DNA of 64,000 nt from Cyanidioschyzon merolae. Its lineage: Eukaryota. The stretch lies in assembly GCA_000091205.1 (NCBI GenBank), contig AP006498.2; one strand, 5' to 3'. The position numbers and the translations under genes are program-made. Below are positions 3,804 through 59,467 of this stretch, piece after piece. The notes under the pieces were generated by a model. The model ran no database searches and was not told the DNA's origin. It worked only from the letters and a program-made list of their open reading frames with translations. The stretch's first letter is position 1. Each line of letters starts with the position of its first letter.

Positions 3804-3996
3804 TGTCGACGGGAGCACTGCGAATAAACGAGTTCGGGTTTACTTGAAGCAAAGTTTGTTCGGGCGACGAAGACGAGTGCGGCTTCATGCGCTGCAAATG
3901 AAAGCATTCGGGTTCACCAGAAACGCTGGTTTATCCTGTTTCCAGCACCGCCGGCTGCGTGTGCAGGCGCCCCGGCAGCGCCAGCACATGAACGCA

Positions 3997-4135
3997 GGCC
4001 ATGCACGAACCCGTACGGTAGAGAATGAACTGCTTCGGAGACCTCAGCTTCTTGAGTTGTACTGTTCGCCATGGGATACAGGCCGTGCACGAACCCGTAC
4101 GGCAGAGAATGAACTGCTTCGGAGACCTCAGCGTC
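3997..4135. repeat. tandem duplication, ~69 bp unit x2
   Basis: ccgtacggtagagaatgaactgcttcggagacctcagcttcttgagttgtactgttcgccatggga is repeated twice in direct tandem with about 3 mismatches. Confidence 0.7.
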
Positions 4136-4733
4136 TTGAGTTGTACTGTTCGCCATGGGATGCGTTGTTTCGTGCAGCTCTCAAGCTTCCAGGGAGCGCG
4201 AACGAGCTGGGTAGCCCCAGCGGCACCTAAGGCACCAGAATATCCAGGTGATTTCGAACGCTTTGGCCAAGTGCCAACCTATACCGAACGTGAAGCCTTG
4301 GGTTGCGTGGGAAATTCTTTGGGTTCCGCTCCAGAGATCGACGATGCGTACCAGGAAGACGCTATGCGCTGAAACGCATTCATATGCACAGCAGGATGGC
4401 ATTCGATTCGCACGGAAACCCGAGGCCGTCGTATCTGGCACCGGGCGATAGATAAAGACCGTAAAGCAACGTTCAAGGAGAGCGTCGATGCACCAGACGA
4501 GTGATAAACGGGATCAACATCAGCAGAGGTGTATGCGCTCCGCCCCAGCAACCTAGCTGGAAGCGAGTACGCTCGGTACGACTCGTCGCAAGAGCGAGGT
4601 ACCCGACGCGGCACCAGAAAGCAGGGAAACGCGCTCTGTCGTCGTAACGCTCCGTCGACATGCACCGACACGCGGGGCACACATCCGATACTGCGACAAT
4701 ACCCTACTGCTCGGAGGTGAGACGGGAATTCGT

Positions 4734-6950: not shown

Positions 6951-7814
6951 CTAGTTTCAGGGACAACTGGAGGAAGCGCTACTTCCCAGCGAACGCGAAA
7001 CCTGGCCCGGGGTTTGCTAAAAGATGATATTTGGCTTCGAGCTCGATATCCAAAAGCGCTTGCCGGGTGTTAGGTTGCCGTCTCGACGAGAGCAGGGGCC
7101 CGTCGTCCAAACTATGATCAAACCGCGAGTGATAAGCAGAAGATAAAGGTATCAGTGAGCTAGATGCTAGTTAAGAGAAGCAGCTCTTTTCTAGCGTTCA
7201 ATACAACTCGTTGTGATCACTATACGGTAAAGCTATTTTGCGGGCTACCGACAGAACACCAGAGACAGCTTCTTCAAAGCGTCCAGCACGCCATGTCGGG
7301 TGGAGTACGAGACACACCTACTGGTGAACTAGATGACGTATATCTGAGGCAGCTGTTCCCTTGCGTTTGTGCTGTGGTTACTGGTCATCTACCGACGGGC
7401 TCTCTAGTGACAACACCCAGTCGCATAGCAATTCGCCACGGCGCTACGCTCAAGGTAATCGTCGATGGATTCAGGTTTGTTGCTCCCCCTGCAGAGGGTA
7501 ATTCGATGCTACTTTGCGGCGGATAGCAGGAGATCGACATCAACAAGTAATTTTCCATATAGATCACAGGCGAACTACCAGTAGGATAGATGCTTCATTG
7601 TGCAGTGCAGTGAAGACTGCAATCCTTCTTCAGGTAAGTAATACTATAGTACTCAGATGCATGAGGGACACTGAAAGAAAGATGTGTACGAGCACTGCGC
7701 CAAAAACCGGTATTCTTAAAGACTGCTTGCTCTCAACGTTATGAAAACGACCCGATGATCATCCGACGAAAAGCAAAAGCGACGATCGTAGCCGCCAAGG
7801 CCTCTCTGTTTCTT

Positions 7815-8450
7815 AATAGCTTGTTCGCGTTGTCTTGAAAACACTGGTGTACAATCGCAAAAAAAGTCCTAGTTCAAGAAAGGACCTCTTCTACCGAAAT
7901 CGCATCTGCTATAGCTTTTCTGGGACTCAGCAATCGTTATTCAGTACAAGAAGGTCGGCTTGTTTTTCAGTCGACGAGACGTCCTTTGCACGAAACGGTC
8001 TGAACTTGGATGGGTATTCCGAGAGGGGCAGCCCGCTGCATGTGCGATTGAACTCGAGGAGAACGGCTGAATCACCTATTCTAGATGGAGTGGATTCATT
8101 TAGCGGCCTCACATTTGCTCGTAGAGAAGGTCCGGACAGCAGCACCAACCCTTTGTCGAATCACTGAATACTTTTCCCCTGACGTCTGGCGACGGTCTTC
8201 CATTCGAAAACGCGGTATTTCATCGTTCCCCATGCGTTCACGCTTCTGCGGATCCTCTCGGATAGAGCTACTTTTCGATCCTCCGTACGCTGTGTGGTTC
8301 AGTCGCATCGAAGGATTATTTTCTACTGTGAAACCTAATGATCGCTCCACTGGGCGAGTCGCTAGATCCTTCAGCACATGATGACACACCGGTGCACGTG
8401 TCGTGTTTCGTCCGCAAGTCCTTCTCGCTCCATGAAGGCGCTCGCCTATG
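7815..8450 (+). repeat. dispersed repeat family R2, copy a
   Basis: Nucleotide homology to 36005..36340, e.g. ttttctactgtgaaacctaatgatcgctccactgggcgagtcgctagatcc versus ttttctattgtggaaagtaatgatcgctccgctgggcgagtaagtagatcg. Copy a carries an extra insert of about 190 bp. Confidence 0.6.
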
Positions 8451-11806: not shown

Positions 11807-12949
11807 TTAGCGAGAACACAAACGCGTTCGAAAGCGATAGTGCGCAACGAACCATTCGTCACCTCCTTGATAGGACCAGAGTTCTGCACATGCCATGAAG
11901 AAGGTTCGCCAGTAGGCCTCCCATCGGATCGCCTCCCTTTCGCTTCCATAGACTTGCCGAAAGAGTTTTCTAACCGCTTCACGATTGCGGTCCATGTTGC
12001 TCAACCAGTGCTCCGCGGTGTTCGCGTAGTGCATGCCGTTGACACTCCATTTGCGCTCCAGTAACAAGTGCTCTTGGAAACGATACAGCAATCTATCGCT
12101 TGGCATGGTACCGCCTGTAAAGAAATACCGAGCCATCCAGTCCGCTTCACTGGTCGCCTCGAAGTGGTACGGCACAGCACGGTGAACAAAGATATGGATG
12201 AAGAGCTTGCCCTGTCCGTCCGGCTTTAACCAACCCGCGATCTTTGCCAACAGTCTATCGTACTGCTTCATATGCTCAAACATTTCGACGCTCACGATGC
12301 GATCGAAAGCGGCACCCGCCGACACATTGCTGGGGCCGTCCCAGTCGTTGATGTCCGCAGTAAGCACCTGGATTCGCGGGTTCGATTCACCTTTGGTAGT
12401 CCAACCGGCGCTCTCAAGGCGGTTCTCAATAAAAGCCCGTTGTGACTTGGAGTTGCTCACTGCAACGATGCGCATATTCGGATAGCGCTCGGCGAGGTAG
12501 AGACTGAGCGAGCCCCATCCACACCCCAGGTCCATAACATACTGACCATCAGCGAGCTCAGCGCGTTCACATGTGAGCGCCAACATAGCCTCCTCTGCTT
12601 CAGCCAGAGATCCGGTGCCGCGGCACGCAAAGTACCCGCAGGAGTACTTGAGGCGTGGTCCGAGCACGAGTTCAAAGAACGCACTGGGTACCTCGTAGTG
12701 CTGCTCGTTCGCAGCAGTCGTGTGCTCTGCGATGGAACTGCGTCTATGCAAGTCCTCAAGAAACAACTCTTCTTTGTCGGCGATAATCGTTACGAGAGAA
12801 GTTTCAGGCTCCGATCCAGGACGAACGCCTGGGAGTGGACTGTACAGCTCCGCGAGCCGTTCACGGAGGAGTTTGCGTATGCCTGCTCGAATCACCCAGT
12901 CGGGCAGGAGGTTGCGCTCCAGCAACCTTTGCGCCACGCTCAAGAGCAT
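11807..12949 (-). CDS. cyclopropane-fatty-acyl-phospholipid synthase (CMAS family SAM-dependent methyltransferase)
   Basis: ATG at 12949. SAM-binding motif VMDLGCGWGSLSLYLAERYP. Diagnostic CFA-synthase motifs are FDRIVSVEMFEHM and a C-terminal WSYQGGDEWFVAHYRF. Confidence 0.9.
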   Translation of the reverse strand: MLLSVAQRLLERNLLPDWVIRAGIRKLLRERLAELYSPLPGVRPGSEPETSLVTIIADKEELFLEDLHRRSSIAEHTTAANEQHYEVPSAFFELVLGPRLKYSCGYFACRGTGSLAEAEEAMLALTCERAELADGQYVMDLGCGWGSLSLYLAERYPNMRIVAVSNSKSQRAFIENRLESAGWTTKGESNPRIQVLTADINDWDGPSNVSAGAAFDRIVSVEMFEHMKQYDRLLAKIAGWLKPDGQGKLFIHIFVHRAVPYHFEATSEADWMARYFFTGGTMPSDRLLYRFQEHLLLERKWSVNGMHYANTAEHWLSNMDRNREAVRKLFRQVYGSEREAIRWEAYWRTFFMACAELWSYQGGDEWFVAHYRFRTRLCSR

Positions 12950-13106
12950 TGTTGGAGTCAGTCCAGCTCTTGATACGAACGTGAAACAAAGTGAACGACT
13001 TGCAAGGAGTGCCTCCTGTTTGAACGCGGATAACAGCGTAACAAATAGTTATGAAGCGCTTTGGATCGTCGCACGGGGTATTGACGCGCAGCCTTTTGTG
13101 ATTTAT

Positions 13107-13790
13107 TGTGCTGGATAGAAAACGTACATTGACCATTCATCGTTGATTCCGTGATTAGATATTGGCATTCGGTGAACGCATCCATCATGGTGCACGCTAC
13201 CTTCAAGTTCCATGACTTGTACTTTTTATCGGATGTACTGGTTATTTCGTACGTTCTATTGTGCACCGAGGCTGCCTTGATGGTCAGCAAAAGTGCCTGT
13301 ACCGATGATTCGAATGCTGCGCAGAGACTGCGAGGCATTGCCATATGACTGAGGACGTCAGCTGGAGGTATCGTTCACCCGACACGGCATCGGGATTCAT
13401 GATCATTCTGGAAGCTGGAAAGCCGTGCAGAAAGGCCTGCTGCCTACTGCCTGCGGCAGCGCGAAGCGGTATGCTCGGAGACGATCGGGTCTCGGGCGAT
13501 GTCTAGATGCATCCTGTTCGCTGCTCTTCTCAGCGTAATCTTCGTTGCAGACGTTCTGCTCAGATCTCTCTTCAGCACCCGACACTATAGATGCCTACAA
13601 AGTACAATCACCGTTGACTCGTCCGTCTCTAGGGCGCTTCCGCTTTGGCGATAAACTTTCGTAAATACGGAGAACGTTTCCCTGTTAAAATGGCTACCGT
13701 AGATTGCCAGAGGGATTCTCTTATCTGGTTGCTCGTTGGTGGTTCGATTCCGTTCTCTTTTGAATTTATTATGTAAGGAAAACGCCCGCT
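13107..13790 (-). repeat. non-coding dispersed repeat (~650 bp), copy A
   Basis: Reverse-complement match to copy B and copy C over about 650 bp. Its forward-strand 3' end reads ...gttggtggttcgattccgttctcTTTT, a tRNA T-loop-like GGTTCGATTCC followed by a T-run. Confidence 0.85.
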
Positions 13791-14634
13791 CATCTCCGAG
13801 TTCTACCGCTCTCCATGATAGAATGCTCTGCAGCTGAGACGCTTCTATATGTTGTCGAAAACACGTGGTGTCTCGCATTCATTTACGACAATGCAAGACG
13901 GCAGCAACCGTTGCAGAAATCGCCAAACAAGCATATCTCTCTGCTGGAAGGAATGAGTCCGATTCCTCGTTCGCTGCACGAGTTCAGGCTCAGATCGCAT
14001 CTCACTTGAAAGACAGCACGGGACTGTGACAGCCACTCGTGAAATGCCTGCACAGCAGTGCAGTGTTGTGCCATGATTTTTCTGATAGGCCAGGATGTCC
14101 ATAGGTACTCGTCACAGCGTGGATGTTCTCTTCTGGTTTGCCTGATGCATGAGCCCGACACAAGGATGCACAGACGGAGCGCGCTCGGCCGAAGCAGCGA
14201 ACCTCTGATTGACCCGAAAAGAAGCTAGCAAGACATGCGATTACATGCACACAGTCGCATTTTTGTGCATGTTCTTCGAGGCGCTCAGCGCAAGTCGCGG
14301 GCAGGGAGATGTTCGCACTCTTGAAAGTCGGGCCCGTACATGGTGAGGTTTTTGGTCGTGCCCTGGCGGCCCGCACTTGAAAGGCATCTCTCGGATGGGC
14401 GATTAAGTCTCGCATGAGCGCCGGTGCCGAAACGATCAGGTTTTCGTCTGCGGGTCCCATCGCTAAAGCAAAAAGGAAACTCTCTGGAATTGTATCAATC
14501 TACAATATACTGTTCATTTAAGAATCTATCCAACTTCTGAACACGCCATTGCCGAAACAAATAGGTTCTTCAGCTGGCGAGTGCAGTGCGTAGAAGCGAA
14601 TCCGGTCAACAATGAATGCGGAACGCATAGAAGA

Positions 14635-15265
14635 ACGGAATCGAACCACCAACGAGCAACCAGATAAGAGAATCCCTCTGGCAATCTACGGTAGCCATTT
14701 TAACAGGGAAACGTTCTCCGTATTTACGAAAGTTTATCGCCAAAGCGGAAGCGCCCTAGAGACGGACGAGTCAACGGTGATTGTACTTCGTAGGCATCTA
14801 TAGTGCCGGGTGCTGAAGAGAGATCTGAGCAGAACGTCTGCAACGAAGATTACGCTGAGAAGAGCAGCGAACAGGATGCATCTAGACATCGCCCGAGACC
14901 CGATCGTCTCCGAGCATACCGCTTCGCGTTGCCGCAGGCAGTAGGCAGCAGGCCTTTCTGCACGGCTTTCCAGCTTCCAGAATGATCATGAATCCCGATG
15001 CCGTGTCGGGTGAACGATACCTCCAGCTGACGTCCTCAGTCATATGGCAATGCCTCGCAGTCTCTGCGCAGCATTCGAATCATCGGTACAGGCACTTTTG
15101 CTGACCATCAAGGCAGCCTCGGTGCACAATAGAACGTACGAAATAACCAGTACATCCGATAAAAAGTACAAGTCATGGAACTTGAAGGTAGCGTGCACCA
15201 TGATGGATGCGTTCACCGAATGCCAATATCTAATCACGGAATCAACGATGAATGGCCAATCTATA
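14635..15265 (+). repeat. non-coding dispersed repeat, copy B (inverted partner of A, ~845 bp spacer)
   Basis: Begins agaacggaatcgaaccaccaacgagcaaccagataagag... and is near-identical to the reverse complement of A. It diverges from A/C at its distal end (~15250). Confidence 0.85.
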
Positions 15266-15927
15266 CGCTTTGTCAAACAAAAAACAATAGAAATGAATCC
15301 GCTTACAGCGAGGATCCAGCGCAGACGCGTCGCCCTACCGCCATCATATTCCACAATTGTGTATCATTGTCCAAGATACCGAGCAGCCGGAACAGAGGCC
15401 TCCTCCCGAGCCTTTCGCACCGCCTTGGCGCGACGGCTTTTTGAAGACCAGTATTCCAGCCGCAGCACCTGCTGCGTTTGCCCAGAGAGCAGCAGCCGTT
15501 CCGTGTGTGTGCCCTTTCTGGTTTCGAACGCTGTATTGAAGCACATTTTACGCACTCCACAGGGAAACAAGTGTCAAAAGCGCGTGTTGCACTATCAAGT
15601 ACGGTTCGTTGCCTGCGACGCAACGCTAGGTACAACGCTGCGCCTTTGCTCCGTGGCGCAGTGTGCAGCCTGCGAGCCTGTGCGCCTTGTGCACAGTCTG
15701 TGCACTCGTTTCGAGACTATCCAAGCGCGTGCTCAGCTGAGCGTAGAAGGAAGAATAAGTTTTCGTGGCATAGGTAGCGCATTTCAAAGGTTTGGCGCGG
15801 AACCGAAAGACGCACGGGGCAATCGCCGCCTCTGCTGGCCGGAAAACCGTCATGAAAAGCAGGTTGTGCTGCGGGAACGGCGAATCAGAAATAAGTTGGG
15901 TTCCACTTCGAGCTCCGTGGTGCGAAT

Positions 15928-27734: not shown

Positions 27735-28011
27735 GGTACTCAAACGTAAATCGTCTGTTGCATACTATGCTCAAGATCAGCAAGAAAATAGTGGTTCAAC
27801 GCACAGCGCGTTCGTGCTCCTGCACGCTCTCCAAGTCGAGCGCTCTGAACGAGGCGGCACCTCCGGCTCGCTCGTGATGCGCGTTAACGTTCGAGCGGCG
27901 GTTTCGTGCACGCCCGACACCGCACCATCAACGCCGCTCTAAAGTCGAACGACTTCGGGCGTGTACAGTAGTGGCGGCAACCGTGCCCTAGACTTAAAGT
28001 CTCCAACTGAA

Positions 28012-29092
28012 GTGCAGACGCTTCCTAGGCTTTCTGGACCGGGCACTCACTACTGCTTCCAACTTGTTCTCATATAGTTCGAATTTGAGAGATTGTCCAA
28101 TAAAGTTCATTCTTGTCCGCTCTGGAGGTCTCGTCTCCAGCGCTGCACATCTGCTTATATTGATAGCGGCATTAAAGTCGCGATTCACGAATTCCATGCG
28201 TTTCGTGCCATCATTGGTTGTACTTACCAATGCAAGGAGTCCACGAACTTTCGCCCTCCTTTCCATTTGCTCCTCCGTCAGCGGTCCATACTTTTTTATA
28301 TCTTCAGGGCTCCGCTGTCACTTTTCCATCTCCACTCTCTGAAGTGTACACCCCAGTTCATGCTGTGTATAGGACGTTCGGAACACATCTATCGGTATCG
28401 TGACGAAACGCCGTGCACACTCTTTGTACGTTCTTGTCGTTGGAGCTGGTGTACACCCTTTTTGGGTCTTCCATCGCCCTGCTCCGTACGCGACTACGAG
28501 CGTCTGACTGTCATCCTCCTTCAAGGCGCTCAACTCATTGAAAAAGTTCGCGAACGCCCGCTGTTTCCCACAGTATAGATTCATGCGCAGACGAGCCGGC
28601 CGGGGCTTTGTATATTCTTCCCACAGCGCATCCCAATGCGCAAACCGATCTTCTATGAATTTCCGAAAAGCTGTAAAGCCCGCTCCTCGGCTCGTCACCT
28701 CGCTCATAGCTTCCAGGTGATCTTTCATTCCTGAATTCCACGTACAAATTTTCTTCCTCGCATTCATTATACCGGATCCTCGATAGCATCTTGCTCTCGA
28801 GAACCTCAAAAAGACGCATATCTTTCTGACGTAAGTTACCATCAGTCCCATCTTCCGCACACTTTGGTACAGCGATGGTTATGATATTCGTATTCCCAGG
28901 GTCCACGCCAACGACAAAGTCGTTATCCTGCACCTCCTGCATCGCAGGATCCCCATCATTCTCATCTACATCCTTCGCCGAGCCGTCTACAAGGTTGTAC
29001 TTTTCCACTTCCTGCGTCACAGAATCCGCGTCCTTCTCGTCTATATTCTTCGCCACGGGCGAAGCCGAAGACGGACCAGGAGACGGGCCCAA
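28012..29092 (-). mobile_element. Fanzor/TnpB-like element, copy 1 (5'-truncated, diverged subfamily)
   Basis: Minus-strand ORFs give FVVGVDPGNTNIITIAVPK (RuvC-I), VVAYGAGRW...[29 protein letters not shown]...[14 protein letters not shown], a single in-frame TGA, then [11 protein letters not shown]...EFVNRDFNAAINISRC (RuvC-III). The 3' terminus ...gcgtctgcac lies at 28012 (minus strand). Confidence 0.8.
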
Positions 29093-29999
29093 CGGCGCTG
29101 GAGGCGCAGAAGAACGCGTTTGCCGTTGGCATGGATCCCGGGAACACCCACATCGTTACCATCGCAGCACCCAAGCGTGAGGAAGATGGCTCTGACGGCA
29201 ACTTACGTCAGAAAGACATAAGTCTGTTGAAGCTCTCATGAGCGAGATATTACCGAGAATCCGGTATAATGAATGCAAGGAATAAAAGTGAGACATCGAA
29301 TTCAGGAGTGAAGGGAATTTGGAAGCGATCAGCCGGGTGACGAGCCGCGGAGCCGACATGGAAGCGTTTCGAGAGGCCATGAGCATTCACGCAGCTCATG
29401 ACGAAAGCCTTTGGAAAGAATGCACAAAGTTCAGGTGGGCTCGTCTGCGTATGAACCTGTACTGTTGGAAACAGCGAGCATACGCCAGCTTTTTCAATCA
29501 GTTGAGCGCCCTCAAGGAGGACATGAGCCAAAGGCTCGTAGTAGCATACGGGGCAGGTCGATGGATGCCCCAAAAAGGGTGTACACCAGCTCCAACGACA
29601 AGAACGTACAAGGAGTGCGCACATGGTTATGTCGAAATACCTTTAGATGAGTTTCGAACATCTTCTACACACCACGAGCTGTGTTGTACACTTCAGAGGG
29701 TCGCGATGGAGAAAAGCCAGCGGCTCGCTGACGGAAATGCAAATGGCAAGGAGGGCGAAACTTCGAGGACTACTCGCATTGGTTACTACAACTACTGATG
29801 GCAAGAAACGAATAGAGTTCGTGAATTGAGACTTTAACGCCGCCATCAGTGTAAGGAGGTGTGCAGTACTGGAAAGAAGACCCCCGGAGTTGGCGAGAGC
29901 CAACTTTGCGAGGCAACCTCCCAAAATGGAGTGATACCAGAAGAAGTTGAAACCAGTAGTAGGTGGCCAGTTGCTGAACGCCAGCACAGTCGTCTGCAC
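29080..29999 (+). mobile_element. Fanzor/TnpB-like element, copy 2 (5'-truncated, head-to-head with copy 1)
   Basis: AFAVGMDPGNTHIVTIAAPK ... [48 protein letters not shown] ... RRAKLRGLLALVTTTTDGKKRIEFVN then TGA then DFNAAISV, a stop inside RuvC-III. It ends ...cagtcgtctgcac at 29999 and is about 80% nt identical to copy 1. Confidence 0.8.
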
Positions 30000-30330
30000 A
30001 TCGATGGGTAGACATTCGGTCTACGGCGGACGGTGTGAGAAGCGCCACTCTTGTACACTGGCTTTCCAGCGTTTCTCTTTTGCAAGGCGTTTGGTGGTGT
30101 TTCCAGAGACGAATTGTTTATCAAAAACGTCTTCTGTCGATCTTCGAAACCAACGTGCTGCTTCCTCTGTGCGGCACGGGGCGTACGCTATGCGCTTTTC
30201 TGCTGATTGACAGCGGAAGCGACAAGTCCGGTTACTGCCTTGAAGACTTAGACGCTTTGGAGAGACCATCATATCGATGGTTTCAGTTTTCTGACCTCCT
30301 CCTAACCACCACGCTCGGATCTCTGTTGCA

Positions 30331-35353: not shown

Positions 35354-36004
35354 GAGGGCAGCGTGCAAGCAGAATTAGAGTTGCATATTGTTCGGTACCC
35401 GTGCACTGCGGTGCAGAGTATACGGACCACGAAGCATGAATATGGCAAAGAAGGTTCGTTTTTATGTACGGAGCGGTGCGTATGCGCATCCGCTCACACA
35501 CGTTCACAAGCCCCAAGTCGGATAGCTGAGGATTCCCAAACTGCACTGTACTGCACTGCCGTTCTTGGTCGTTCGAATTCTCTCCATCCAGAAACGCATC
35601 CCATACGGACGCTCGAGACGCTCTCTGCTCACCAGCGCAACTCCATGAGGCTCCATTCCTGCTATGCGTATTCGTATGCTATGTTGATGTGTATAGCAGA
35701 AGGTCGAGATGTAGAAGCAATGTGCTGTATAGATCGTAGTCGAATAGAATGTTAGATACATATTCTCTACTGAACAGTGCAAGGAGGACTGCATTCCTCG
35801 TTCAGGTACGGTTCACCACAGTATTCAGATGGACGAGGAGCACTGGACGGAAGACGTATATGCGCGCGGTGCCGATAACCGACATTTTCAGAGACTGCGT
35901 GCAGTCAATGGTAGCAAACCGCAACCCGTTGATCACTTTATGGGAATCAAAAGCGACGATAGTGGACACCAAGGGCGTCCCTGTTTCTCACCAGCTTGTT
36001 CGTT

Positions 36005-36340
36005 TAGTGCTAAAAACACTGGGATAGAGTCGCAAAAGAAATGTCCGATTTCACCCGTGGCCATCTTCCACCGAAATCGCAGCGGCAGCATTCCCAGTCC
36101 GTTGCGCTCGGTATGAAGCGCAGGAGAGTCGGTTTGTTTTCCCGATTCTAGCGCGGAGTAGAGCTGGTTTCCATTCCCCCGTAAATTCCAAGGTTGAAAC
36201 CCATTGAAAGAGTGTTTTCTATTGTGGAAAGTAATGATCGCTCCGCTGGGCGAGTAAGTAGATCGTTCAGCAAACGGTGACACACCGCGGCGCATGTTGC
36301 CGATCTTCCGCAAGTCCTTCTCGCTTCGGGAAGGTCCTCA
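36005..36340 (+). repeat. dispersed repeat family R2, copy b
   Basis: Homologous to 7815..8450 (aaaacactgg...ccgaaatcgca...atgatcgctccgctgggcgag...ccgcaagtccttctcgct). Downstream sequence contains a segment inverted relative to copy a. Confidence 0.6.
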
Positions 36341-38584: not shown

Positions 38585-38589
38585 GCGCC

Positions 38590-40092
38590 ACGACCAGCTC
38601 GCTATCCTGCATATGCTGCGTTGCAGGATCCGCCTGATCTTTTTCTGCACGATTCGTCACGGGCGATATCGAATACGGACCAGGACGATCCGCTTTCAAG
38701 CGCCGATAGTGTACACACATGGCTACGCCATCGGCTTCGATCATCCCAGTGAATACCTTTTGCTTGCTGGCTTTGAGACGCTTGAAGTCGAAGATATTCA
38801 TCCAGTGCGTCTCCCCGTTTTCACCGGTGAACTCCTCCGTGCTGACATCGAACTCCGGGCTGATCTCTCTCATGATCCCGTAAAGGACGCCGGAGTCGAT
38901 TGTCACAAAATGTGACTTGATGTTGCACAACGGAACGACGTTGAAGCGCTTACCCATTAGGAAAGCATCCCGTCTCTCCGACTTTTCATTTTTTCCCCGA
39001 CTCAGCTGCTCTTCGGCGTTGCGTTCGAGTTCTCGGTTCCGAAACAAGAAACAGCTTAGGATGACGGGATAACATCTTTTTTTCATTTCTGATACATTTT
39101 CTACGGGATTGACTGGCCCAAAACTGCACGGTGCTCCTGTATAGCCGCACGGATTACAGAAGCTTCATTTGTGCTGCTGTGTGACGTCTTCTTGTCGACG
39201 AATTCGATCTCCTGTCCACTCTGGCGATCGTTCGTGATACAATTGATGATGCCCCACATCCCTTTGCGCGAGATGCCCGGGTAGAGCGCAAAGATAGATC
39301 GTACCACGAAGCGTTCGAGGTTCACGGTCAGATGGTTCTTCAGGTTCGTCAGGTACTTCATGGGCACTTAGAACTAAATATTCGAGTCATGCCTGTATCG
39401 AGTACCGTTGAAGCGGTACTTGGGGCATTTTTCGTGGAGGGCATATACTCGCGCATTTCGCTTCTACGCTTCCCCCGTGCCAAACATCAAGTGACGAATA
39501 AAGGTCTTGTCGAAAAATTCTTCCGGAACCTCTTCTGTTTCCATGCCCGTCACGTCGCGATACATATCCCTCGCGATATGCATCAGTCCTACGGCAGCGT
39601 CTCATACACTCATAGAGTGCGCCTCGAAACGGGTTCTGATGGCCTCTTGGGGCTTTTCCCTGTGCGGTTCTTTGATGTGTTTCAGAAGACAGGCTTTCAC
39701 CAGCATCTCGTAATATGATCGTCTTTCTCGCATCCATTGACGTCGGGCATCCCGCTGTCGCTTCTTCGACCTGTCTCGTTCCGCTTTGCTCGGCTCTGGT
39801 TTTCATTTTTCTCCGGCAGCCGGCGACGCCGGGCCTCCAGCATCCTCCACTTCCATTTCCATTACTTTCCATTGCTATGATAAGAATGCACTTTGGAAGC
39901 GTCTACTGTAAACTACGAAAAATCACTTGACTAGAGTACTGTAAGGGCTGAAACACGAATGAATCGCAAGACTATACTTTGCTATGACGTCAACGCAAAT
40001 ACGACTTGAACCTAAAGTACAACAACAAGTTAGCGAATGATCAGGATCGCAATTCCCTTCAAAAGCGAGATACGCGTCGAGTCTGATGCCTT
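38590..40092 (-). mobile_element. Fanzor/TnpB-like element, copy 4 (5' part only; truncated at its 3' side exactly at the permease stop codon)
   Basis: About 97% nt identical to copy 3 (58360..59362) over 1.5 kb. Contains ORF-A MKYLTNLKNHLTVN... and the N-terminal 212 aa of the nuclease ORF (MKKRCYPVILSCFLF...KADRPGP). Homology to copy 3 stops at 38590, 6 bp after the transporter stop at 38584. The 5' boundary (gtctgatgcct) is shared with copy 3. Confidence 0.8.
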
Positions 40093-40824
40093 CCAGACAC
40101 AGACGTGAGCGTAACGACAGCATTAAATGGAACAAAGAATAGAAACTCACTACTAACTAGCAATCCGATAGGAATTTCGTTTCCCACTACGATCGACGTT
40201 AAAAGGGGGAAAAGCTTGCCGTATCTTCGAAGGTTGATCTTCGAGGTGGAAAGTCTCGCGAGCCGGACGAATCCCCAGTGCTTGTGCTTCGTGCTCCACC
40301 CAGAGTCAGGTGATTTGGCGAGATCTGAGCAACTAATCCACAACGCAGTTTATTCTCGAACTAGGGGCAGTTGATGTGCCTCTGGGCGTCGCCCTGGTCG
40401 CAGTGGACTCTTAGTATATTGCTGCGCGCTGCCGCAGACAGACGTACTGTCTGCGCAGCTTGCGGACTCCCAGAATGATGATGTACGCCGACTCCGTGTC
40501 GATTGCAACACATCTCGAGCCGACGCCCTCAGTGGTACGGAAAAACCGTTCTGTCTCCGTGCAGCACCCGCTTCAGCGGTATAAGCGCTACGGCGAGTGC
40601 TCACGGCAGGCAGTCGTCGCAGGATAGAACATACGAAACGACCAGCGTATCCCAGAGGAATTGTAAGTAATGGAACCTGGAAGTAGGGTGCAGCATGGTG
40701 GACGATCACATGAATCTTAAAGCCCATCCCGGATTTCGGACTCCTTGGTCCATGGAAACGTTTTGTCATCATAAGAGCAGGAAATCGCTGACAGCGTTGA
40801 CGTAGCAGGCGCCACGCACGTGCA

Positions 40825-43197
40825 ATGCCGCTCGAGCGCGCCTGCAGCGCTTCTCCCGGTGCACAGGATGCGCTGGCGGATGCTCCAGCTCGTGTGCGAC
40901 TAGCTGGGAACGCTGCAGGTACGTCTAGACAGGCTCTTCTGCGAAGAGTTATGCCAGAGACTACCCGTTTATTTCGCGTAAAGCAGAGGTCTTGTGGTGC
41001 GAATTCGCTACCTTGTATCTTGCGCTCGTCACCGATAACGTTTGTTTTTCTACAGAGCGGCGGCGCTTTAACACAGGGAACTGCTCGCTCTGCGGGCGCT
41101 CGTGTAGCGTTCCGGCTCAGAGCGCGTGCCGCTCTGTCATCGCTTGCACAACCAGCGCGCCTTGCATGGACGTGCGCTGGGCAAAAACAGGTCCAGTTTC
41201 AAGCTACGTGCTCGCGAGTCGGGTTTCTGGGTCGGTTTCCGTCACGCAAGGCGATCTCGCAAGCAGCGCGTCGGTGCAGCAGGTTACGTATGGCGGGCGT
41301 TAGCGCTGACGGCCAAGCGCGCTTGCAGAGTCGACGCGAGCGTGCCATAGCCCTGCTCAAGCGGCTCAAAGAACTCGCGGTTCCGTTCTGGACCGAGCCG
41401 AGCAGTCGCAACGCCGCGTGGCGGTGGACACTGGGAACACTGGCGCTGGCGTTCGTCTGCACCCTCTATGCCGTTTCGTTGTCGTTCATTCAGCGCTTCT
41501 TCTGGAACGCGTTGAACGCGAAGGATGCGGTGAAGTATCAAAAATTCTTGGTTCTCTACGTTGCGGCACTCATCGCAGGGCCCCCGTTTCTGACGCTGTT
41601 CGAGTGGATGAGACAACGAACCGCCCTGGTGTGGCGTCGCTTCCTCACCGAGCGCCTTCTCGGCGGATACTTCCATGACCGCAAGTATTATACAATCAAT
41701 ATTCTGCGATTACAGAACAATGAGACCGTTCATGCAACGCCAGCGACGTCCGCAGGTGGCGTTCGTGTCGTGCAAGATGCTCTCGATAACGTCGACCAGC
41801 GAATTAGCGAGGACATTCGCGCGTTTACGGAACGTGCCGTTGGATTCGGATGCACCGTGGTGATCGCATTATTTGACTTTTTACTGTTCAGCGTGATTTT
41901 GTTCCGCATCCGCGCACAGCTGTTTCTGCTGCTTGTGCTGTACTCGACCATTGGGACGGCGGTGACGTTGTGGCTAGGCGGCCGACTCGTGCACCTGAAT
42001 TTCGCCCAGCTCCGACGAGAAGCAGATTTTCGGTACGCGCTTGTTCGCGTTAGAGAGAATGCCGAGTCGATCGCGTTCTACGGCGGCGAGGAACAGGAGC
42101 AGCGCGCAGTCTCGCGTCGGTTCCGGGCCCTCTTCGACAATATGATCCAACTGCTGCGATGGCAACGGAACGTGACCTTTGCAACGACCTGGTATCGCTA
42201 TCTGATCCAGGTGGTACCCGCTCTGGTCGTCAGTAGGGACTACTTTTCTGGTCGCATACCGCTAGGTGCATTGAGCCAAGCGTTTTTCAGCTACAATCAT
42301 GTGCTGAACGACTTGTCCCTGGTTGTGAATGAATTCGTCGGCCTTTCTGCGTTCGCTGCCGCAGTGAATCGGCTCTATGAATTGCACTGCGCTGTGGAGC
42401 CGCGGCTGCTCGCTGGTCAGCGCCACGAGCGAGACGCCGGGTCACAGGCCGACACGGAAGGCATCGTGACGCTGACAGGGAACGGCACGGCTGCTGGCGT
42501 CAAGCCAGCAGCTTTGCGTCTGGAGAAGCTGACGATCTACACACCCGAAGGCCGACGGCGGCTCGTTGACCAGCTGGATCTCATGCTTGAGGATGGCGCA
42601 CGCATCTTGCTCATGGGTGAGAGCGGCGTGGGCAAGTCGTCCACGGTGCGGGCAATCGCCGGCCTCTGGAAACGGGGCAGCGGCGTCGTGTACCGGCGCC
42701 CGCATCCGCGGAATACGCTTTTCGTTCCCCAGCGGCCGTATTTGATGTTGGGCACCCTCCGCGAGAATCTCTTTTATCCGCTGCATGGAGAGGATGCGGC
42801 CAACGTTGATGAGAAGACGATTCGGAACGTTCTGGTGCGCGTCAACCTGCCCGACCTTGTAGATCGATTAGGCGGACTCGACGTCGAAGCCGACTTTGCC
42901 GCCATTCTTTCGCTTGGCGAGCAACAACGGCTTGCATTTGCGCGCCTTTTACTGCAGCCGGAGCCTGTGCAGCTTGCGATTTTGGATGAATCAACCAGTG
43001 GCTTGGATGTCGAAAACGAACGCCGTCTCTATGAGCTCTTGCGGGAGATGGGTATTAGCGTGTTGAGTGTTGGGAATCGGCCGACGCTCATCCGGTACCA
43101 CAATCAAGTTATCCGGCTTTTTGCCAATGGCAGTTGGCAAATCGAATCGCCATCAGAGGCGGTAGAGCACCTCCTCGGCAGCAGCTTGCTTGATTAG
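40825..43197 (+). CDS. ABC transporter subfamily D (peroxisomal ALDP/PXA-type half transporter)
   Basis: ATG at 40825. TMD followed by NBD. ABCD signature NVDQRISEDIRAFTE, Walker A GESGVGKSS, C-loop LSLGEQQRLAFARLL, Walker B AILDESTSGLD. Confidence 0.9.
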   Translation: MPLERACSASPGAQDALADAPARVRLAGNAAGTSRQALLRRVMPETTRLFRVKQRSCGANSLPCILRSSPITFVFLQSGGALTQGTARSAGARVAFRLRARAALSSLAQPARLAWTCAGQKQVQFQATCSRVGFLGRFPSRKAISQAARRCSRLRMAGVSADGQARLQSRRERAIALLKRLKELAVPFWTEPSSRNAAWRWTLGTLALAFVCTLYAVSLSFIQRFFWNALNAKDAVKYQKFLVLYVAALIAGPPFLTLFEWMRQRTALVWRRFLTERLLGGYFHDRKYYTINILRLQNNETVHATPATSAGGVRVVQDALDNVDQRISEDIRAFTERAVGFGCTVVIALFDFLLFSVILFRIRAQLFLLLVLYSTIGTAVTLWLGGRLVHLNFAQLRREADFRYALVRVRENAESIAFYGGEEQEQRAVSRRFRALFDNMIQLLRWQRNVTFATTWYRYLIQVVPALVVSRDYFSGRIPLGALSQAFFSYNHVLNDLSLVVNEFVGLSAFAAAVNRLYELHCAVEPRLLAGQRHERDAGSQADTEGIVTLTGNGTAAGVKPAALRLEKLTIYTPEGRRRLVDQLDLMLEDGARILLMGESGVGKSSTVRAIAGLWKRGSGVVYRRPHPRNTLFVPQRPYLMLGTLRENLFYPLHGEDAANVDEKTIRNVLVRVNLPDLVDRLGGLDVEADFAAILSLGEQQRLAFARLLLQPEPVQLAILDESTSGLDVENERRLYELLREMGISVLSVGNRPTLIRYHNQVIRLFANGSWQIESPSEAVEHLLGSSLLD

Positions 43198-43687
43198 AGC
43201 CAACACCGGCTCGCCTGGCTTTTGCGAGTGTTTCTGGAGCGTATGCCGCAGCACGAACTGCGCTGTCGTCTGAGCACTGAAGCCGCAAAGCACGAAGGCT
43301 AGTCGTGCGCGTCTCGGCCTGGGCGCTGGGTTCGTTTGGCGCAAAGCTCTAAGGATGCTTTGCGCAAGACCAAGCGAGTTTTCGTTATATGAACGCGGGT
43401 CGTCAGCTGTGCACACCAGTTACACCCGTGCTTCGTACCCAGTGACATAAAGCTATCGCTGGCGCCGCGCGGAGCGAAGAAAATTACCAGACGCGATGGC
43501 TCGTTGGTTGCAAACCAAGGCGCCCCGCACGCAGTTCCGGTGCTCTTACCAGCAGGCTATGTGGCACCCGCGCAGTTCGTGTGAACGCCGCTCGGGCAGG
43601 TTGCGCTGGGCGCCGAGCGCTGGCCACACCATGGGACGCAAGGCAGCTGCTGCGGTAGCGAGGCATCACCCACCGGCTATGGAGCAA

Positions 43688-43918
43688 CCGTACATGATCC
43701 CGCAGAATACAGATTGTTTGGCGCGCTTTTCTTGCTCACTTCGGCGCACGCTGATCAAATCAGGAACCGTACATGATCCCGCAGAATACAGATCTTTTGG
43801 CGCGCTTTTTTTCGCTCACTTCGGCGCACACTGATCAAATCAGGAACCGTAAATGATCCCGCAGAATACAGATCTTTTGGCGCGCTTTTTTTCGCTCACT
43901 TCGGCGCACGCTGATCCA
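43688..43918. repeat. tandem repeat, ~80 bp unit x3
   Basis: ccgtacatgatcccgcagaatacagat(t/c)ttttggcgcgc(t)ttttt(c)gctcacttcggcgcacgctgatcaaatcaggaa repeated three times. Confidence 0.7.
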
Positions 43919-52281: not shown

Positions 52282-53699
52282 TGGCGCAGAACACCGGGCT
52301 GGTGCCGGGGCTGGTGCGGTGCGCCCCAGTGCGCGATGACCGCCCCCAGCAGGGCATTAGCCCAATAAACCCAGGTTCACGTCGCTGCATACGAGACATG
52401 TACTGAATCGAAAAGCCTCCCTAGACTTTTCCCGTAGACCAGTAGCGTCTGCTGCGAGCACGTTGCAGGTAACGGTGTCTGAGCGGGTCAGGTCTGGAGA
52501 GATAACGAGCTTCTGATTGGCAAACGAACACGCGCCATGCCGCGCGCAAAGCCCTGGGCATCTAATCGAGACGAGGGTGTTTTCCAGAATATGTCCAATA
52601 AGATCCCACTTTACTTTCCATGGACAGAACGTAGCTCCTGACGAGGGATTCTCGTGCCTGGCAGCGGCCGACGTCTCCTTTCAATCGACAGAGCATTCGT
52701 ACAGACCAGGAGTGCGTGCAGTTGCACGATGAGGATCGGCATCAGCGATAGCGTTCCACCAGACACCATCCATACTTGCGCTTGGAGAAACTGGTCGATG
52801 CGTATGATGCGCTGAGCGCCGTGCATGCTGTGAGTATGTAGAGCGCCAGTGCGCGCGCAGTATGGAGGCGGAACCGCCTCGCCGTGCCACCGAATGCATC
52901 GGCTCGGAGATCCCGATATCAGTGGGTTCAGAGTGCAACCATGCGCACTGGACTTGATGGCAGTCGTGCGATACCCGTGTCAGCATAAGGAGGAACATTG
53001 AACTGCTCGAGATATTGCTGCTTTTCGTTTTTTCTTCAATTTTTTAGGATGCATCGCCTCGGCATTCGGGGTGCAGCCTTAAGGCGTTGTGCATTCAAAC
53101 GTAGGTTGAGGAATCTTGGTCGTTTTCTCGGAATGACGCATTGGAGTCAATGCCGATGGACATGATTACGTTACCGAAATCAACTTGATTCGCGACGCTC
53201 TCGACCGATCGTCCCTAAAATAACCGAGAACACTATCCAGTACACAGGAGCGAGCCTCCGCGATTCTCGATTCCTGATGCATAGCTAGTTCAAACGACCC
53301 GTACTTCAAGTTTTCGATATTTCTGTTTCATGGGAATTTGTGAGCACAGAGCTTTGCGTCGGCGGAACGGCTGGGGGAAAATATTCGACGTCTTTGCTTC
53401 ACGACGCGTTCACGAGCTCACGCCGAACGTTCACTGGACGCGTCACCTCAAATAATCGATGCCGTTCGAGAGACAAATCATGCTCGGTTTGCGGCCGGCG
53501 AAGATACTGCATTCGACAGCGGCATGATACCGCTCTCTAAGTATGTCACTTGTGCTTCCCTGTGTCTCTTCTTTTGTTGATGGAATAGGGTTTTGGACTC
53601 GGACTTGGGTAGTTGCAGCGATCGCTCCTAATGGAGCGTGCGTCGCCACGCTGGACAAGACGCGCGTGACTGCATCGGAATTTCTAGACTTTTGCAGAT

Positions 53700-53840: not shown

Positions 53841-54558
53841 CCCCGGGTACGGGTACGGGTGCGGAAGCGGAGCAAGTCTTCAACTGGAGCTGTGTGTATC
53901 CGTCTAGTCTGCGTTCCAGGCGATGAAGCAAGCGTTCAAGCGCCACAGAATGGCGCGCGCTGAGATACAGGTATGATGGACAAACGGGAGCACCTGCGTA
54001 TATTTCATGGACACCGCTGCAATGAGCGCACCAAAGCTCTCTACAAAGAACATGAAAACGGCAAGCAAAATGCAGATCGCTAGTTCCGCTCATGGAAGAA
54101 CTTCGTTTATGACTGTTGAAAGCAGTAAAGTCGGAACTCTGTTGCCGCCATCATCATCCGTCGAGTGCCGACGCTGCAGCTGGAGGGACGACAGTGATCC
54201 GCGACTTTCAAGCCAAATACAAGCGGAAGCGAACGGGAACAGTTGCAGCAACATCCCGTCAAGGCTGCTGCTCATGGCTCTGGGACGAGATCCGACCATC
54301 ATGGGTCTGAAAACCCGTGTGACCGAAGTGCACCCGTCCCATGTTTCGAACATGGCTGCCGTGCAACACTGCTGTTTGGGAGCGCAGTGTCTGCTTTTTT
54401 TGGTTAATGGCAGCAAGCGCACATTCGCGATAAACCATGCTGGGCTCGTTCATCAGACATCATACAGAATATTCGCCACTATCCGTTTGCGGAGGATTCG
54501 CCAGGATCGCAGAACTGCGGTTCATTGATGCCGACCGAGTCGTCTCTATACAAATCGC

Positions 54559-54836
54559 GGCATTCTAAAATGCTCTTTGTCGAGTATAGCTCCATTTCAG
54601 GATTTCATTCGTATGCTGGATCATGACGGCATCCTAGCATGCTCTTTGTCGAGTATAGCTCCATTTCAGGATTTCATTCGTATGCTGGATCATGGCGGCA
54701 TTCTAGCATGCTCTTTGCCGAGTATAGCTCCGTTTCAAGGTTACAGCAGTTTGCTGGATCATGACGGCATTCTAGCATGCTCTTTGCCGAGTACAGCTCC
54801 GTTTCAGGATTTCATTAGTCTGCTGGATCATCGTCC
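54559..54836. repeat. tandem repeat, 69 bp unit x4
   Basis: ggcattctaaaatgctctttgtcgagtatagctccatttcaggatttcattcgtatgctggatcatgac repeated four times with increasing divergence. Confidence 0.75.
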
Positions 54837-56070
54837 GGATATATCATTCGGTCGTCAGCGTATTCCGCGGCTCCGTTCCGACTAGAGCAAGTGTGTGTCG
54901 CTGCGCTAGCGCAGCTTCTGCGCCGCACTCGTTGGCCCCCTTTTTCCTCATGCGCTTCCGAAAATCACTCATTGAGACGCTCAGAGAGTTTCAGTAGGAT
55001 CTTTGCGCATTCGGGCTCAAAATGCCTCACTACTAGCCACTGCTCGCTTGCGATTCCCTCTACCGTCCGATGCTGGTGGCAGCGCCTTGCACCACGGGAG
55101 TACCCGCAGTCCGTCGTCGTTTGCGCCAACGGTGCACGTTTCATACTGAGACCCACTTTCGACGCGCTCGGAGAAGCAGGACGACGATGTCTGCGTTCAA
55201 GCCGAGCAACCACAGCTCTGCGCTAATGCCGAGAGCCGGGCCGGACGCCGCAGCATGCGGAACGACACCATGCTGCGTCGCGCAGCGGCAGCACGAGTGT
55301 AAGAGCCAGCAGACACCGGTCAGGGACCTCGAGATATGCCTCCAAAGTGGCTACCAGGACCCGCTTCGGGAAATATGACTCCGTATGCGGCCGGAGCTGC
55401 AGCATGGGAGAACCGTAGCCAAATGACCGAACGATCGCTCGCTGTTTACAGGGGAAATTTGTTCGGAAGCCAACGAAGCAAACACGAGGTTTCAAATGAA
55501 AGGCGAACAAGCAATTGAAAAAGAAAACAGGTTACCGACTCCTTCCGCTGCCTTAGTCAACATGCCTGCACTTTGGAGCAGAAAACTGCAGATGATTCGG
55601 TGAAGCAGCGAGCGGCAACGTCGTCTCTACTCGCCCCGCGTATTCGACGTCGGCAGTGGCTACGGTTCGGATCCGTTCGGATTCAAACCGGCATCCATCA
55701 GCCGTTTACCTCCACGCTGCCGCATAGCGGACGACAAGCGCACTTTCGAGCATGCAGCTATTCACTGGCGCGCTGCGCTCACGGGCATCGGCGTGAAACG
55801 CATGCGGTGGCATCCATCGGCCACGAAGACGCGTACCTAAACCTCGCAGCAACTGGGATATGGGGCCGACAAGACGTTCCCTCACATGACTCCTTCGACT
55901 CGCAATGCAGAAACTTCACGCTGGGCTGGAGCAGGCCTCCAAAGCATGCCTCACATGGCGCTTGCAGAGCGGGATGCATACGCTGCTGTTTCCGCTACCT
56001 GGCTCGCTTAACGCATTCACTTGGCCGCAACATCCCTGAAAGCCGAATGCGGCGCCATGACGTGCATGCG

Positions 56071-56954: not shown

Positions 56955-59362
56955 GTGCAGACGTCTCCCAGTGTTTTTTGACCGGCCATCTACTACTGCC
57001 TCCAACTTATTCTCATCTAGTTTGACTTTGAGAGGTTGTCCAACAAAGTAGGCTCTCGACAGCTCGGGAGGTCTTTTTTCTCCATCACCACACATCTCCT
57101 GATATGGATAGCAGCATGAAAGTCACGATTCACAAACTCGATACATTTCTTGCCGCCGATGGTGGTTGTACTCAGTAATGGAAGGAGTCCTCGAACTTTC
57201 GCCCTCCATTCCATTTGCTCTGCAGTCAAGGCTCCGTACGTTTTTATATAACCTCAGGATTCCGCTGACACTTTTGCATCTCGACCCTCTGAAGTGTGCA
57301 CCGAAGCTCTTGGTGTATAAACGATGCTCGGAACTCATCTATGGGTACTGTGACAAATCGCCTCGCACACTCCGGGTACGTTCTTGGCGTTGCAGCTGGT
57401 GTGCTCTCTTTTTTCGACCCCCAGCGCCCTGCTCCGTATGCTACGACCAGCCTCTGACTTTCATCTCCTTTGAGGGCGCTCAACTCATTGAAAAAGTTCG
57501 CGAATGCACGCTGCTTCCCACAGTACAAGTTCAGACGCGGACGAGCCCGCCTGGGCATTGTATATTCTTTCCACAGCGCATTGCCATGAGCAACGCGAGT
57601 TTTGATGAATTCTCGAAAAGCTCGAAAGTCCGCTCCACGACTGGTAACATCGCGAATAGCTTCCAGGTGCTGTTTCGTGCCTGGATTCCATTTCTCAATT
57701 CTCTTCCTCGCACTCGTGAATCCCGATTCTCGATAGTATCTCGCCCTCGAGAACCTCAAAAGACGCATGTCTCTCTGGAAAAAGTTACCGTTGATACCAT
57801 ATTCCGCACGCTTGGGTACAGCGTTGGTTATTGTAGTCGCGTTCTCCGGGTCCGCGCCAACGACAAACTCGTTCTCCTGTACCTCCTGCGTCGCGGAATC
57901 CGCCTGATCGTTTTCTGCACGATTCGTCACAGGCGATATCGGAAACGGACCAGGAGGATCCGCTTTCAAGCGCCGATAGTGTACACACATGGCTACGCCA
58001 TCGGCTTCGATCATCCCAGTGAATACCTTTTGCTTGCTGGCTTTGAGACGCTTGAAGTCGAAGATATTCATCCAGTGCGTCTCCCGGTTTTCACCGGTGA
58101 ACTCCTCCCTGCTGACATCGAACTCCGGGCTGATCTCTCTCATGATCCCGTAAAGGACGCCGGAGTCGATTGCCACAAAATGTGACTTGATGTTGCACAA
58201 CGGAACGACGTTGAAGCGCTTACCCATTAGGAAAGCCTCCCGTCTCTCCGTCTCTTCATTTTTTCCCCGACTCAGCTGCTCTTCGGCGTTGCGTTCGAGT
58301 TCTCGGTTCCGAAACAAGAAACAGCTTAGGATGACGGGATAACATCTTTTTTTCATTTCTGATACATTTTCTACGGGATTGACTGGCCCAAAACTGCACG
58401 GTGCTCCTGTATAGCCGCACGGATTACAGAAGCTTCATTTGTGCTGCTGTGTGACGTCTTCTTGTCGACGAATTCGATCTCCTGTCCACTCTGGCGATCG
58501 TTCGTGGTACCATTGATGATGGCCCACATCCCTTTGCGCGAGATGCCCGGGTAGAGCGCAAAGATAGAGCGTACCACGAAGCGTTCGCGGTTCACGGTCA
58601 GATGGCTCTTCAGGTTCTTCAGGTACTTCATGGGCACTTAGAACTAAATATTCGAGTCATGCCTGTATCGAGTACCGTTGAAGCGGTACTTGGGGCATTT
58701 TTCGTGGAGGGCATGTACTCGCGCATTGCGCCTCTACGCTTTCCCCGTGCCAAACATCAAGCGACGAATAAAGGTCTTGTCGAAAAATTCTTCCGGAACC
58801 TCTTCTGTTTCCATGCCCGTCACGTCGCGATACATATCCCTCGCGAGATGCATCAGTCCTACGGCAGCGTCTCATACACTCATAGAGTGCGCCTCGAAAC
58901 GGGTTCTGATGGCCTCTTGGGGCTTTTCCCTGTGCGGTTCCTTGATGTGTTTCAGAAGACAGGCTTTCACCAGCATCTCGTAATATGATCGTCTTTCTCG
59001 CATCCATTGACGTCGGGCATCCCGCTGTCGCTTCTTCGACCTGTCTCGTTCCGCTTTGCTCGGCTCTGTTTTTCATTTTTCTCCGGCAGCCGGCGACGCC
59101 GGGCCTCCAGCATCCTCCACTTCCATTTCCATTACTTTCCAGTGCTATGATAAGAATGCACTTTGGAAGCGTCTACTGTAAACTACGAAAAATCACTTGA
59201 CTAGAGTACTGTAAGGGCTGAAACACGAATGAATCGCAAGACTATACTTTGCTATGACGTCAACGCAAATACGACTTGAACCTAAGGTACAACAACAAGT
59301 CAGCGAATGATCAGGATCGCAATTCCCTTCAAAAGCGAGATACGCGTCGAGTCTGATGCCTG
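56955..59362 (-). mobile_element. Fanzor/TnpB-like element, copy 3 (near full length, ~2.4 kb)
   Basis: 5' boundary shared with copy 4 (gtctgatgcct). 3' terminus ...gacgtctgcac at 56955 is shared with copies 1 and 2. Encodes ORF-A (58371..58634), the nuclease ORF 57244..58356 (MKKRCYPV...[20 protein letters not shown]...VVAYGAGRW...[19 protein letters not shown]...[15 protein letters not shown]), then frame-shifted segments [38 protein letters not shown] (57017..57229) and ...RPPELSRAYFVGQPLKVKLDENKLEAVV (third frame). AT-richer than the flanking host genes. Confidence 0.8.
57017..58634 (-). pseudogene. Fanzor/TnpB-like RuvC nuclease coding region of copy 3 (frame-disrupted or spliced)
   Basis: RuvC-I-like G-A-D-P-E at ~57850. 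TnpB-like 'V.P.D.F.R-S' motif before a Cys/His cluster. Ruv[14 protein letters not shown]. At least two frame discontinuities relative to copy 1. Confidence 0.7.
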
Positions 59363-59467
59363 CCAGATATGGAGATGCGGGTATCGACCGCGCTATATAG
59401 AAAAATAGGGAGAGATACTAGCCCCTAACCAGCAACTAGATAACAGTTTGCTCCCGCTCCACGGAAA

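Follow-up and report, generated by a model that had tools for sequence, protein, structure and literature searches.

An inverted pair of ~650-bp repeats in Cyanidioschyzon merolae as highly probable copies of TE-N2_CMe, the 5' module of the Fanzor1 element CMe-1A

Described relatives and the repeat in the window

The alga Cyanidioschyzon merolae harbors the Fanzor1 element CMe-1A, ~3 kb in length, in ~150 copies that individually share ~80% identity with the consensus; the 5' 635 bp of CMe-1A are 95% identical to a separate element, TE-N2_CMe, which is present in ~70 copies (Bao and Jurka, 2013, Mob DNA 4:12, PMC3627910). Both elements lack terminal inverted repeats (TIRs), their target-site duplications (TSDs) were not definable, and no class was given (PMC3627910). 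Previously, 253 copies of a transcribed 3.2-kb repeat with a truncated, WSV486-like ORF, together making up about 5% of the genome, had been reported (Nozaki et al., 2007, BMC Biol 5:28, PMC1955436); that paper did not resolve a separate 635-bp module. WSV486 of WSSV may itself be a Fanzor1, and the table of Bao and Jurka lists one Fanzor in the WSSV genome. The element MCi-2 of Mucor circinelloides provides a case in which one Fanzor1 core is associated with differing or absent 5' modules (Bao and Jurka, 2013). Fanzor proteins are recognized by a DPG motif in RuvC-I together with a shifted RuvC-II glutamate (10.1101/2023.08.09.552727).

We analyzed a 64,000-nucleotide stretch of C. merolae DNA (GenBank GCA_000091205.1, contig AP006498.2), referred to below as the window. 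Two of its ORFs are exact C. merolae 10D proteins (BAM81691.1 and BAM81697.1), C. merolae being the host of TE-N2_CMe, and its gene content includes long intron-free eukaryotic ORFs for a kinase with ankyrin repeats, a tyrosine phosphatase, Memo, a histidine kinase, and a CMAS-type methyltransferase. A sequence-only reading of this window had described a ~650-bp non-coding repeat in three copies, A, B, and C, with A and B arranged as an inverted pair. The repeat and the pair are indeed present, with 99% identical arms and slightly shifted limits, as are all three copies; a diverged copy, D, and a weak remnant had been overlooked. The copies and the spacer between A and B are as follows.

13104-13763, plus strand: copy A, solo module of the TE-N2_CMe type (nhmmer, family profile positions 2-650, E=6e-194)
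13764-14628, no strand assigned: unique spacer between A and B (no second match in the window)
14629-15281, minus strand: copy B, solo module of the TE-N2_CMe type, inverted relative to A (nhmmer, profile positions 5-646, E=2e-187)
40129-40775, minus strand: copy D, diverged module at the 5' end of Fanzor1 element copy 2 (family profile and sensitive self-BLAST)
52765-52906, plus strand: degenerate, weak module remnant (nhmmer, profile positions 107-262, E=1.8e-6)
59403-60056, minus strand: copy C, 5'-terminal module of Fanzor1 element copy 3, CMe-1A type (nhmmer, E=5e-196)

Copies A and B sit in opposite orientations in the intergenic region between the divergently oriented methyltransferase and tyrosine-phosphatase genes. 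The left end of A faces the methyltransferase gene and its inner end is a T-run; the left end of B faces the tyrosine-phosphatase gene. When the window was compared with itself, the inverted arms extended over 13125-13756 and 15263-14632 and were 99.2% identical over 632 nt, or 96% identical when extended without gaps to 13086/15302. The arms are separated by 875 bp, not by the 845 bp given earlier. Copy C is 96.0% identical to A (13106-13737 vs 60055-59427) and 95.6% identical to B, the overall range quoted being 96-98%, while D, whose self-BLAST match lies at about 40124-40702, is 65% identical to A. A three-way alignment of A, B, and C reveals a common core; at the inner end A agrees with B, and at the outer end it agrees with C. 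Within the spacer, a 152-aa ORF (14002-14460, minus strand) is unsupported and has no exact match in the protein collection; the spacer is without a Pfam match or a Fanzor1 HMM signal.

We consider it highly probable that the repeat is the TE-N2_CMe element, or equivalently the 5' module of CMe-1A, and that an 11-mer resembling a tRNA box B in two of these copies is there by chance. On the basis of the descriptions by Bao and Jurka (2013) and Nozaki et al. (2007), A and B are assigned to TE-N2_CMe, and C and D to the 5' module of CMe-1A. This identification, for which host, size, position, and the published description were used rather than an alignment with the consensus, would account for each of the properties compared. 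The repeat here is found in the same host, belongs to the same size class (630-660 vs 635 bp), and corresponds to the 5' end of a ~3-kb Fanzor1 element. It also exists as a stand-alone unit, A and B both stopping at the inner end of the module, and it is an old, diverged family. Alignments of left and right ends, judged by eye rather than by a formal test, show no reverse-complement similarity and hence no TIRs. A check for TSDs, as the sequence-only reading would have expected of a mobile element, yielded none that is significant: the longest flanking direct repeats are 7 nt, and the 7-mers flanking the arms, ATTTATT at A and ATTCATT at B, are matched as well in 15-22% of shuffles. This result agrees with the published failure to define TSDs (PMC3627910). 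Compared with the published description of TE-N2_CMe and CMe-1A, nothing substantive differs. The module limits determined here, 650-660 bp, are slightly above the published 635 bp.

Both the repeat and its link to the Fanzor1 element had already been published in 2013, and the tRNA/pol III lead can be closed (see below), so that the discovery value of the locus is small. Two observations are added to the published description, namely Fanzor1 units devoid of the module and sharp mosaic blocks of identity between neighboring copies.

The view that the repeat is a dispersed, non-coding, non-autonomous family and not a one-off segmental duplication is borne out by the ~70 solo and ~150 Fanzor-linked copies per genome that have been published (PMC3627910). 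About 10 distinct module loci were found in the window and metagenomes combined. Scanning metagenomes with a 26-base degenerate pattern returned 15 contigs from about 8 distinct loci, a number that does not by itself demonstrate 70 copies; most of the published copies, being ~80% identical to the consensus, would miss an exact 26-base pattern. A scan of a viral contig collection for the module gave 0 matches.

The module and the Fanzor1 core

Beside copy C lie minus-strand ORFs that contain RuvC-like motifs and belong to a family with 222 metagenomic homologues and 1417 cluster representatives. No Fanzor match was obtained with Pfam, with NCBIfam, in PDB with a single ORF from the window, or in PDB with a narrow family profile (A2). 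A broad family profile (A6), built from 79 diverse representatives, matched the PDB structures of Fanzor1 from Parasitella (9cf0, E=2.7e-21), Spizellomyces (8gkh, 1.3e-13), and Guillardia (9cer, 1.7e-6). The alignments underlying A2 and A6 carry VVGADPGNTNIIT, VDEFRTS, and FVNRDFNAAIN, and so display the RuvC-I DPG motif, the RuvC-II glutamate by the zinc-finger region (DEFRTS), and the RuvC-III motif NRDxNAAxN. Because the family both matches solved Fanzor1 structures and has the Fanzor signature, the earlier label "Fanzor-like" is correct. The Fanzor1 elements of the window comprise, besides modules C and D, the following parts.

59049-59402, minus strand: non-coding leader of Fanzor1 copy 3 (no HMM match upstream of 59048)
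57044-59048, minus strand: Fanzor1 coding region of copy 3 (family HMM positions 5-605, in three frames)
38585-40128, minus strand: rest of Fanzor1 copy 2, consisting of the leader and the N-terminal half of the coding region (HMM positions 5-368)
27930-30058, no strand assigned: Fanzor1 "copy 1", two 3' halves of elements forming an inverted pair with right ends outward and arms ~73% alike

Copy 3, with RuvC motifs DPG/DPE, DEFRTS, and NRDFNAAIN, is probably a pseudogene, judging from a coding region broken into three frames; the copy in the window itself has DPE and frameshifts. Module C had been placed 105 bp from the Fanzor gene, whereas recognizable Fanzor1 coding sequence starts at ~59048, ~355 bp beyond the inner end of the module (59403). 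Copy 2 is cut off at 38585, where it adjoins the stop codon of a CitMHS transporter ORF (Pfam match). In a self-BLAST, 38585-40702 and 57854-59980 form a 2.1-kb repeat, 87.8% identical, that holds D and C.

Read in the orientation of the Fanzor1 gene, the element begins with a left end near 60056-60075 and continues through the ~650-bp module, which ends T-rich, a ~350-bp leader, and the Fanzor1 coding region to the right end. The same order is seen, at 65-75% identity, in D and in four metagenome elements (L005, L011, L024 element 1, and L026). In C and in all of these, the Fanzor1 unit is immediately preceded by the module, and the elements are ~3.1 kb long. Similarly to the 3.2-kb repeat of Nozaki et al. 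(2007), window copies 2 and 3 measure ~3.1 kb and carry an ORF of the Fanzor1 family that is truncated or frameshifted.

In A and B, homology to the Fanzor-linked copies ends at the T-run, at the same inner point in both. Further solo or partial module copies are present at the L012-type locus and in L009, at 2464-2765. Conversely, Fanzor1 units with no module start with a 5' end of their own ~25-30 nt past the position of the T-run (the L006/L022 locus and L024 element 2). Since Fanzor1 units without the module exist, we conclude that the module and the Fanzor1 core are separable units. As in MCi-2, one Fanzor1 core is thus found with differing or absent 5' modules; unlike in MCi-2, the 5' module is here a separately dispersed family itself. 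The locus is of modest value in that it illustrates, in compact natural form, how a Fanzor1 family lacking a transposase is assembled from a separable 5' module and a core unit.

The module shows no sign of coding potential: codon-phase bias, frame preference, tblastx, and a six-frame search with the Fanzor1 HMM were all negative, and the longest ORF of the module had no homologue in a protein search. Conserved RNA structure was sought by sliding alifold on both strands of seven diverged copies with column-shuffle controls. No clean covariation was detected, and a few marginal hairpins (z from -2.6 to -4.8 at tiny energies) were all that was recovered. Within CMe-1A, the module may serve as a left-end cis sequence and is probably the promoter or 5' leader of the Fanzor1 gene. 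The solo copies A and B, in turn, would be module copies that inserted in opposite orientations between two genes and are either non-autonomous or dead.

Alternative origins of the repeat and of the inverted pair

The end of copy A contains a short motif on which the proposal of a tRNA-derived SINE, or of another element transcribed by pol III, had been founded.

13741-13751, plus strand: tRNA box-B look-alike GGTTCGATTCC, mirrored in B at 14637-14647 (minus strand) and not conserved in C, D, L005, and L011

The motif had been quoted correctly, and TTTT follows 9 nt on at the ends of both A and B. Such a retroposon would be transcribed from box B, terminate at the T-run, and spread with the help of the non-LTR retrotransposons of the alga, of which 26 are described (PMC1955436). 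The solo unit does end at or near a T-rich run that is kept across the family, and, like tRNA-derived SINEs, the repeat is short, non-coding, dispersed, and non-autonomous. The sequence GGTTCGANTCC occurs twice in the window against 0.08 occurrences expected; as both GGTTCGATTCC matches lie in copies of a single repeat, together they amount to one independent occurrence. With its threshold lowered to 80%, ARAGORN draws a degenerate cloverleaf on 13686-13763, but it makes 47 such calls in the window and 36-58 in shuffled sequence, so that this single call is noise. At the default threshold it finds zero tRNAs in the whole window, and at both the default and the 90% threshold zero in 13000-15400. 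Rfam contains no tRNA or SINE family matching at the gathering threshold or at E<=10, the one match being a spurious snoRNA in the spacer; no A box was found within two mismatches; and the fold of the terminal 94 nt, which leaves the motif outside any T-arm, is no more stable than those of shuffles (z=-1.7). The columns that hold the 11-mer in A and B read GGGGCTAGTATC in C, GTAGTGAGTTTC in D, GGGGCTAGTCTC in L005, and GGTTCGTTTC in L011. In a tRNA-derived SINE the promoter is located 5', whereas the box-B-like motif is at the 3' end of this unit. The unit, moreover, ends in a T-run and not in poly(A) or another A-rich or LINE-like tail, has no significant TSD, and is built into a DNA element that is grouped with the Fanzor1 transposons (PMC3627910). 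We therefore regard a SINE or pol III origin as extremely improbable. The 11-mer would instead have arisen by chance, through substitutions in the A/B variant of a TE-N2_CMe module.

The arrangement of A and B invites three further explanations, of which the one considered from the outset was that A, spacer, and B move together as one foldback or long-TIR element, or as a MITE-like derivative of one. The ~630-bp arms, 99% complementary with their left ends outward, have the appearance of such an element, and the two 7-mers could pass for its duplicated target. These 7-mers, however, besides being at the level of shuffles, border each arm and not the whole unit. At their outer ends, over ~20-40 nt, A and B are no more than ~45-50% alike, and therefore the true termini of A and B are not inverted repeats. 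Each arm is a complete family unit that also exists singly, and the spacer, for whose recurrence together with the pair we searched, is confined to this one locus in the window and among 26 metagenome loci. A foldback element is consequently very unlikely. Somewhat less remote, though still improbable, is that B arose by local inverted duplication of A, or A by that of B, as opposed to an independent insertion homogenized later by gene conversion. The 99% identity of A and B, their common inner end point, and their proximity (875 bp) would all be expected of a duplication. Against it, the A/B identity block stops about 20 nt inside the left end defined by the family, and the outermost ~20 nt of B are a D-like variant (TGACAAAGCG) unlike A; the duplicated segment would also have to coincide almost exactly with the mobile unit, and C, 46 kb away, has a sharp-edged identity block of the same kind. 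A single inverted duplication of A is thus a weaker alternative to conversion. Finally, on the model of maize Mu killer, the inverted pair might give rise to a hairpin RNA that silences Fanzor1 elements. The pair has the form that such a silencer would take, in that it duplicates the non-coding 5' end of a transposon family in inverted orientation and lies between two divergent genes. Since C. merolae has no RNA interference machinery (PMC11376382), a silencing role by way of hairpin siRNA is so improbable that the idea was dropped. We return to independent insertion of two TE-N2_CMe modules followed by homogenization, which is also where the distribution of identity along the copies points.

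Mosaic identity among neighboring copies

Identity between the copies was determined in bins. Between A and B it is ~100% only from about 13125 to 13756 and ~45-50% outside this block. Between A and C it is 98-100% from 60055 to ~59478 and then drops to ~55%. Between C and D it is ~60-65% across the module and at least 98% from ~59365 inward, that is, in the leader and core. C is therefore chimeric, its module being of the A type and its core of the D type, and the edges of the blocks are sharp. Most likely, the near-identity of A, B, and C reflects ectopic gene conversion or recombination among nearby copies and not recent SINE-like amplification; similar blocks could also result if a recombinant master copy had recently transposed nearby.

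Metagenome contig L021 starts with the outer flank of C and continues with a module that resembles C as far as 13582 and A from 13684 on, followed by the A/B spacer; the switch from C-like to A-like occurs once, between 13582 and 13684. Such a junction would be expected of a 46-kb inversion by recombination between A and C, or it may be an assembly chimera. Two other contigs, L001 and L002, contain the A/B spacer in opposite orientations, which could represent either a real flip or an assembly ambiguity.

Homologous recombination is very efficient in C. merolae. Conceivably, though we think it unlikely, copies of the family still exchange sequence and rearrange the chromosome by homologous recombination, possibly stimulated by cleavage by Fanzor1 and its guide RNA; if so, the family would have a homing-like means of spread without a transposase. 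The mosaic blocks, the L021 junction, and the orientations in L001 and L002 would fit such exchange and could equally be explained by old conversion events or by assembly artefacts at repeats. As an instance of copy homogenization in an alga devoid of RNAi, the locus could help in studying how Fanzor1 elements persist. Several metagenomes contain contigs ~99% identical to the window, whose ends tend to fall at the repeat.

Spacer orientation and junctions between module copies

The two solo copies of the ~650-bp repeat module, A and B, form an inverted pair around an 875-bp spacer. When two metagenome assemblies (L001 and L002) were compared over window positions 13591-15260, the spacer was found to lie opposite ways round relative to the methyltransferase flank. 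The spacer could have been flipped by recombination between A and B, or the difference could be an ambiguity of the assembler. Metagenome contig L021 (Ga0123519_10018716) was compared with window positions 13100-14714 and 59469-64000. In this contig, the outer flank of C, the module at the 5' end of Fanzor1 element copy 3, is joined to an A-type inner end and the A/B spacer. Along the L021 module, C-like sites give way to A-like sites in one switch only, between 13582 and 13684. Either a 46-kb inversion polymorphism or a chimeric assembly could account for the junction.

Another diverged copy of the module was detected in L021 (9237-9397) and in a second metagenome locus, L019 (8198-8326). It is ~78-80% identical to C over the stretch seen and lies ~7.6 kb to the right of C, at roughly window-equivalent 67.7 kb, beyond the window; this copy and C have opposite orientations, their left ends facing each other with host genes in between.

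The left (outer) ends of two modules are found close to host genes that read away from them: D, the module of Fanzor1 copy 2, is 50 bp from the start codon of an ABC transporter gene (40775-40825), and A is 155 bp from that of the methyltransferase gene (12949-13104). Such closeness could mean that the modules inserted into promoters or that they have a promoter pointing outward, but two cases are too small a sample to judge by.

Paired Fanzor1 elements

Fanzor1 copy 1 consists of two element 3' halves:

27930-30058, inverted pair of 3' halves, right ends outward
27961-28940, one arm of the pair
30058-29097, the other arm

The arms are ~73% alike, and their identity to other copies is 73-85%. 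Both are broken near one shared internal point (~57893-57901 in copy 3 coordinates), near the site at which copy 2 is cut (57854).

Other arrangements were seen in metagenome loci. L024 (818-6359) carries a head-to-head pair of Fanzor1 elements: one bears the module and has its left end at 3897, and the other is a module-less core whose 5' end (~3913) is only ~16 nt away. L022 contains a Fanzor1 unit that lacks the module and is preceded, ~0.7 kb upstream, by the reverse-transcriptase (RVT_1) ORF of a retroelement (814-2710).

Other repeats in the window

3995-4161, 83/84-bp tandem duplication (96%), within the kinase-ankyrin ORF region
7501-7904 / 8259-8438 and 35670-36081 / 36154-36334, dispersed repeat pair, 70-74% identity
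21117-22192, 97-bp tandem repeat, ~9-11 copies (98-99% identical), in the interval separating the phosphatase ORF from the histidine-kinase ORF
43648-43886, short tandem array, 79-80-bp units x3
54554-54898, short tandem array, 69-bp units x4-5

The dispersed pair has no relation to the module and may be another old element family. Metagenome contig L010 aligned to the 97-bp array in several registers, which suggests that it carries a different number of repeat copies. Contigs L002 and L003 aligned with an offset at the 83/84-bp duplication, the copy number of which may therefore vary among strains.
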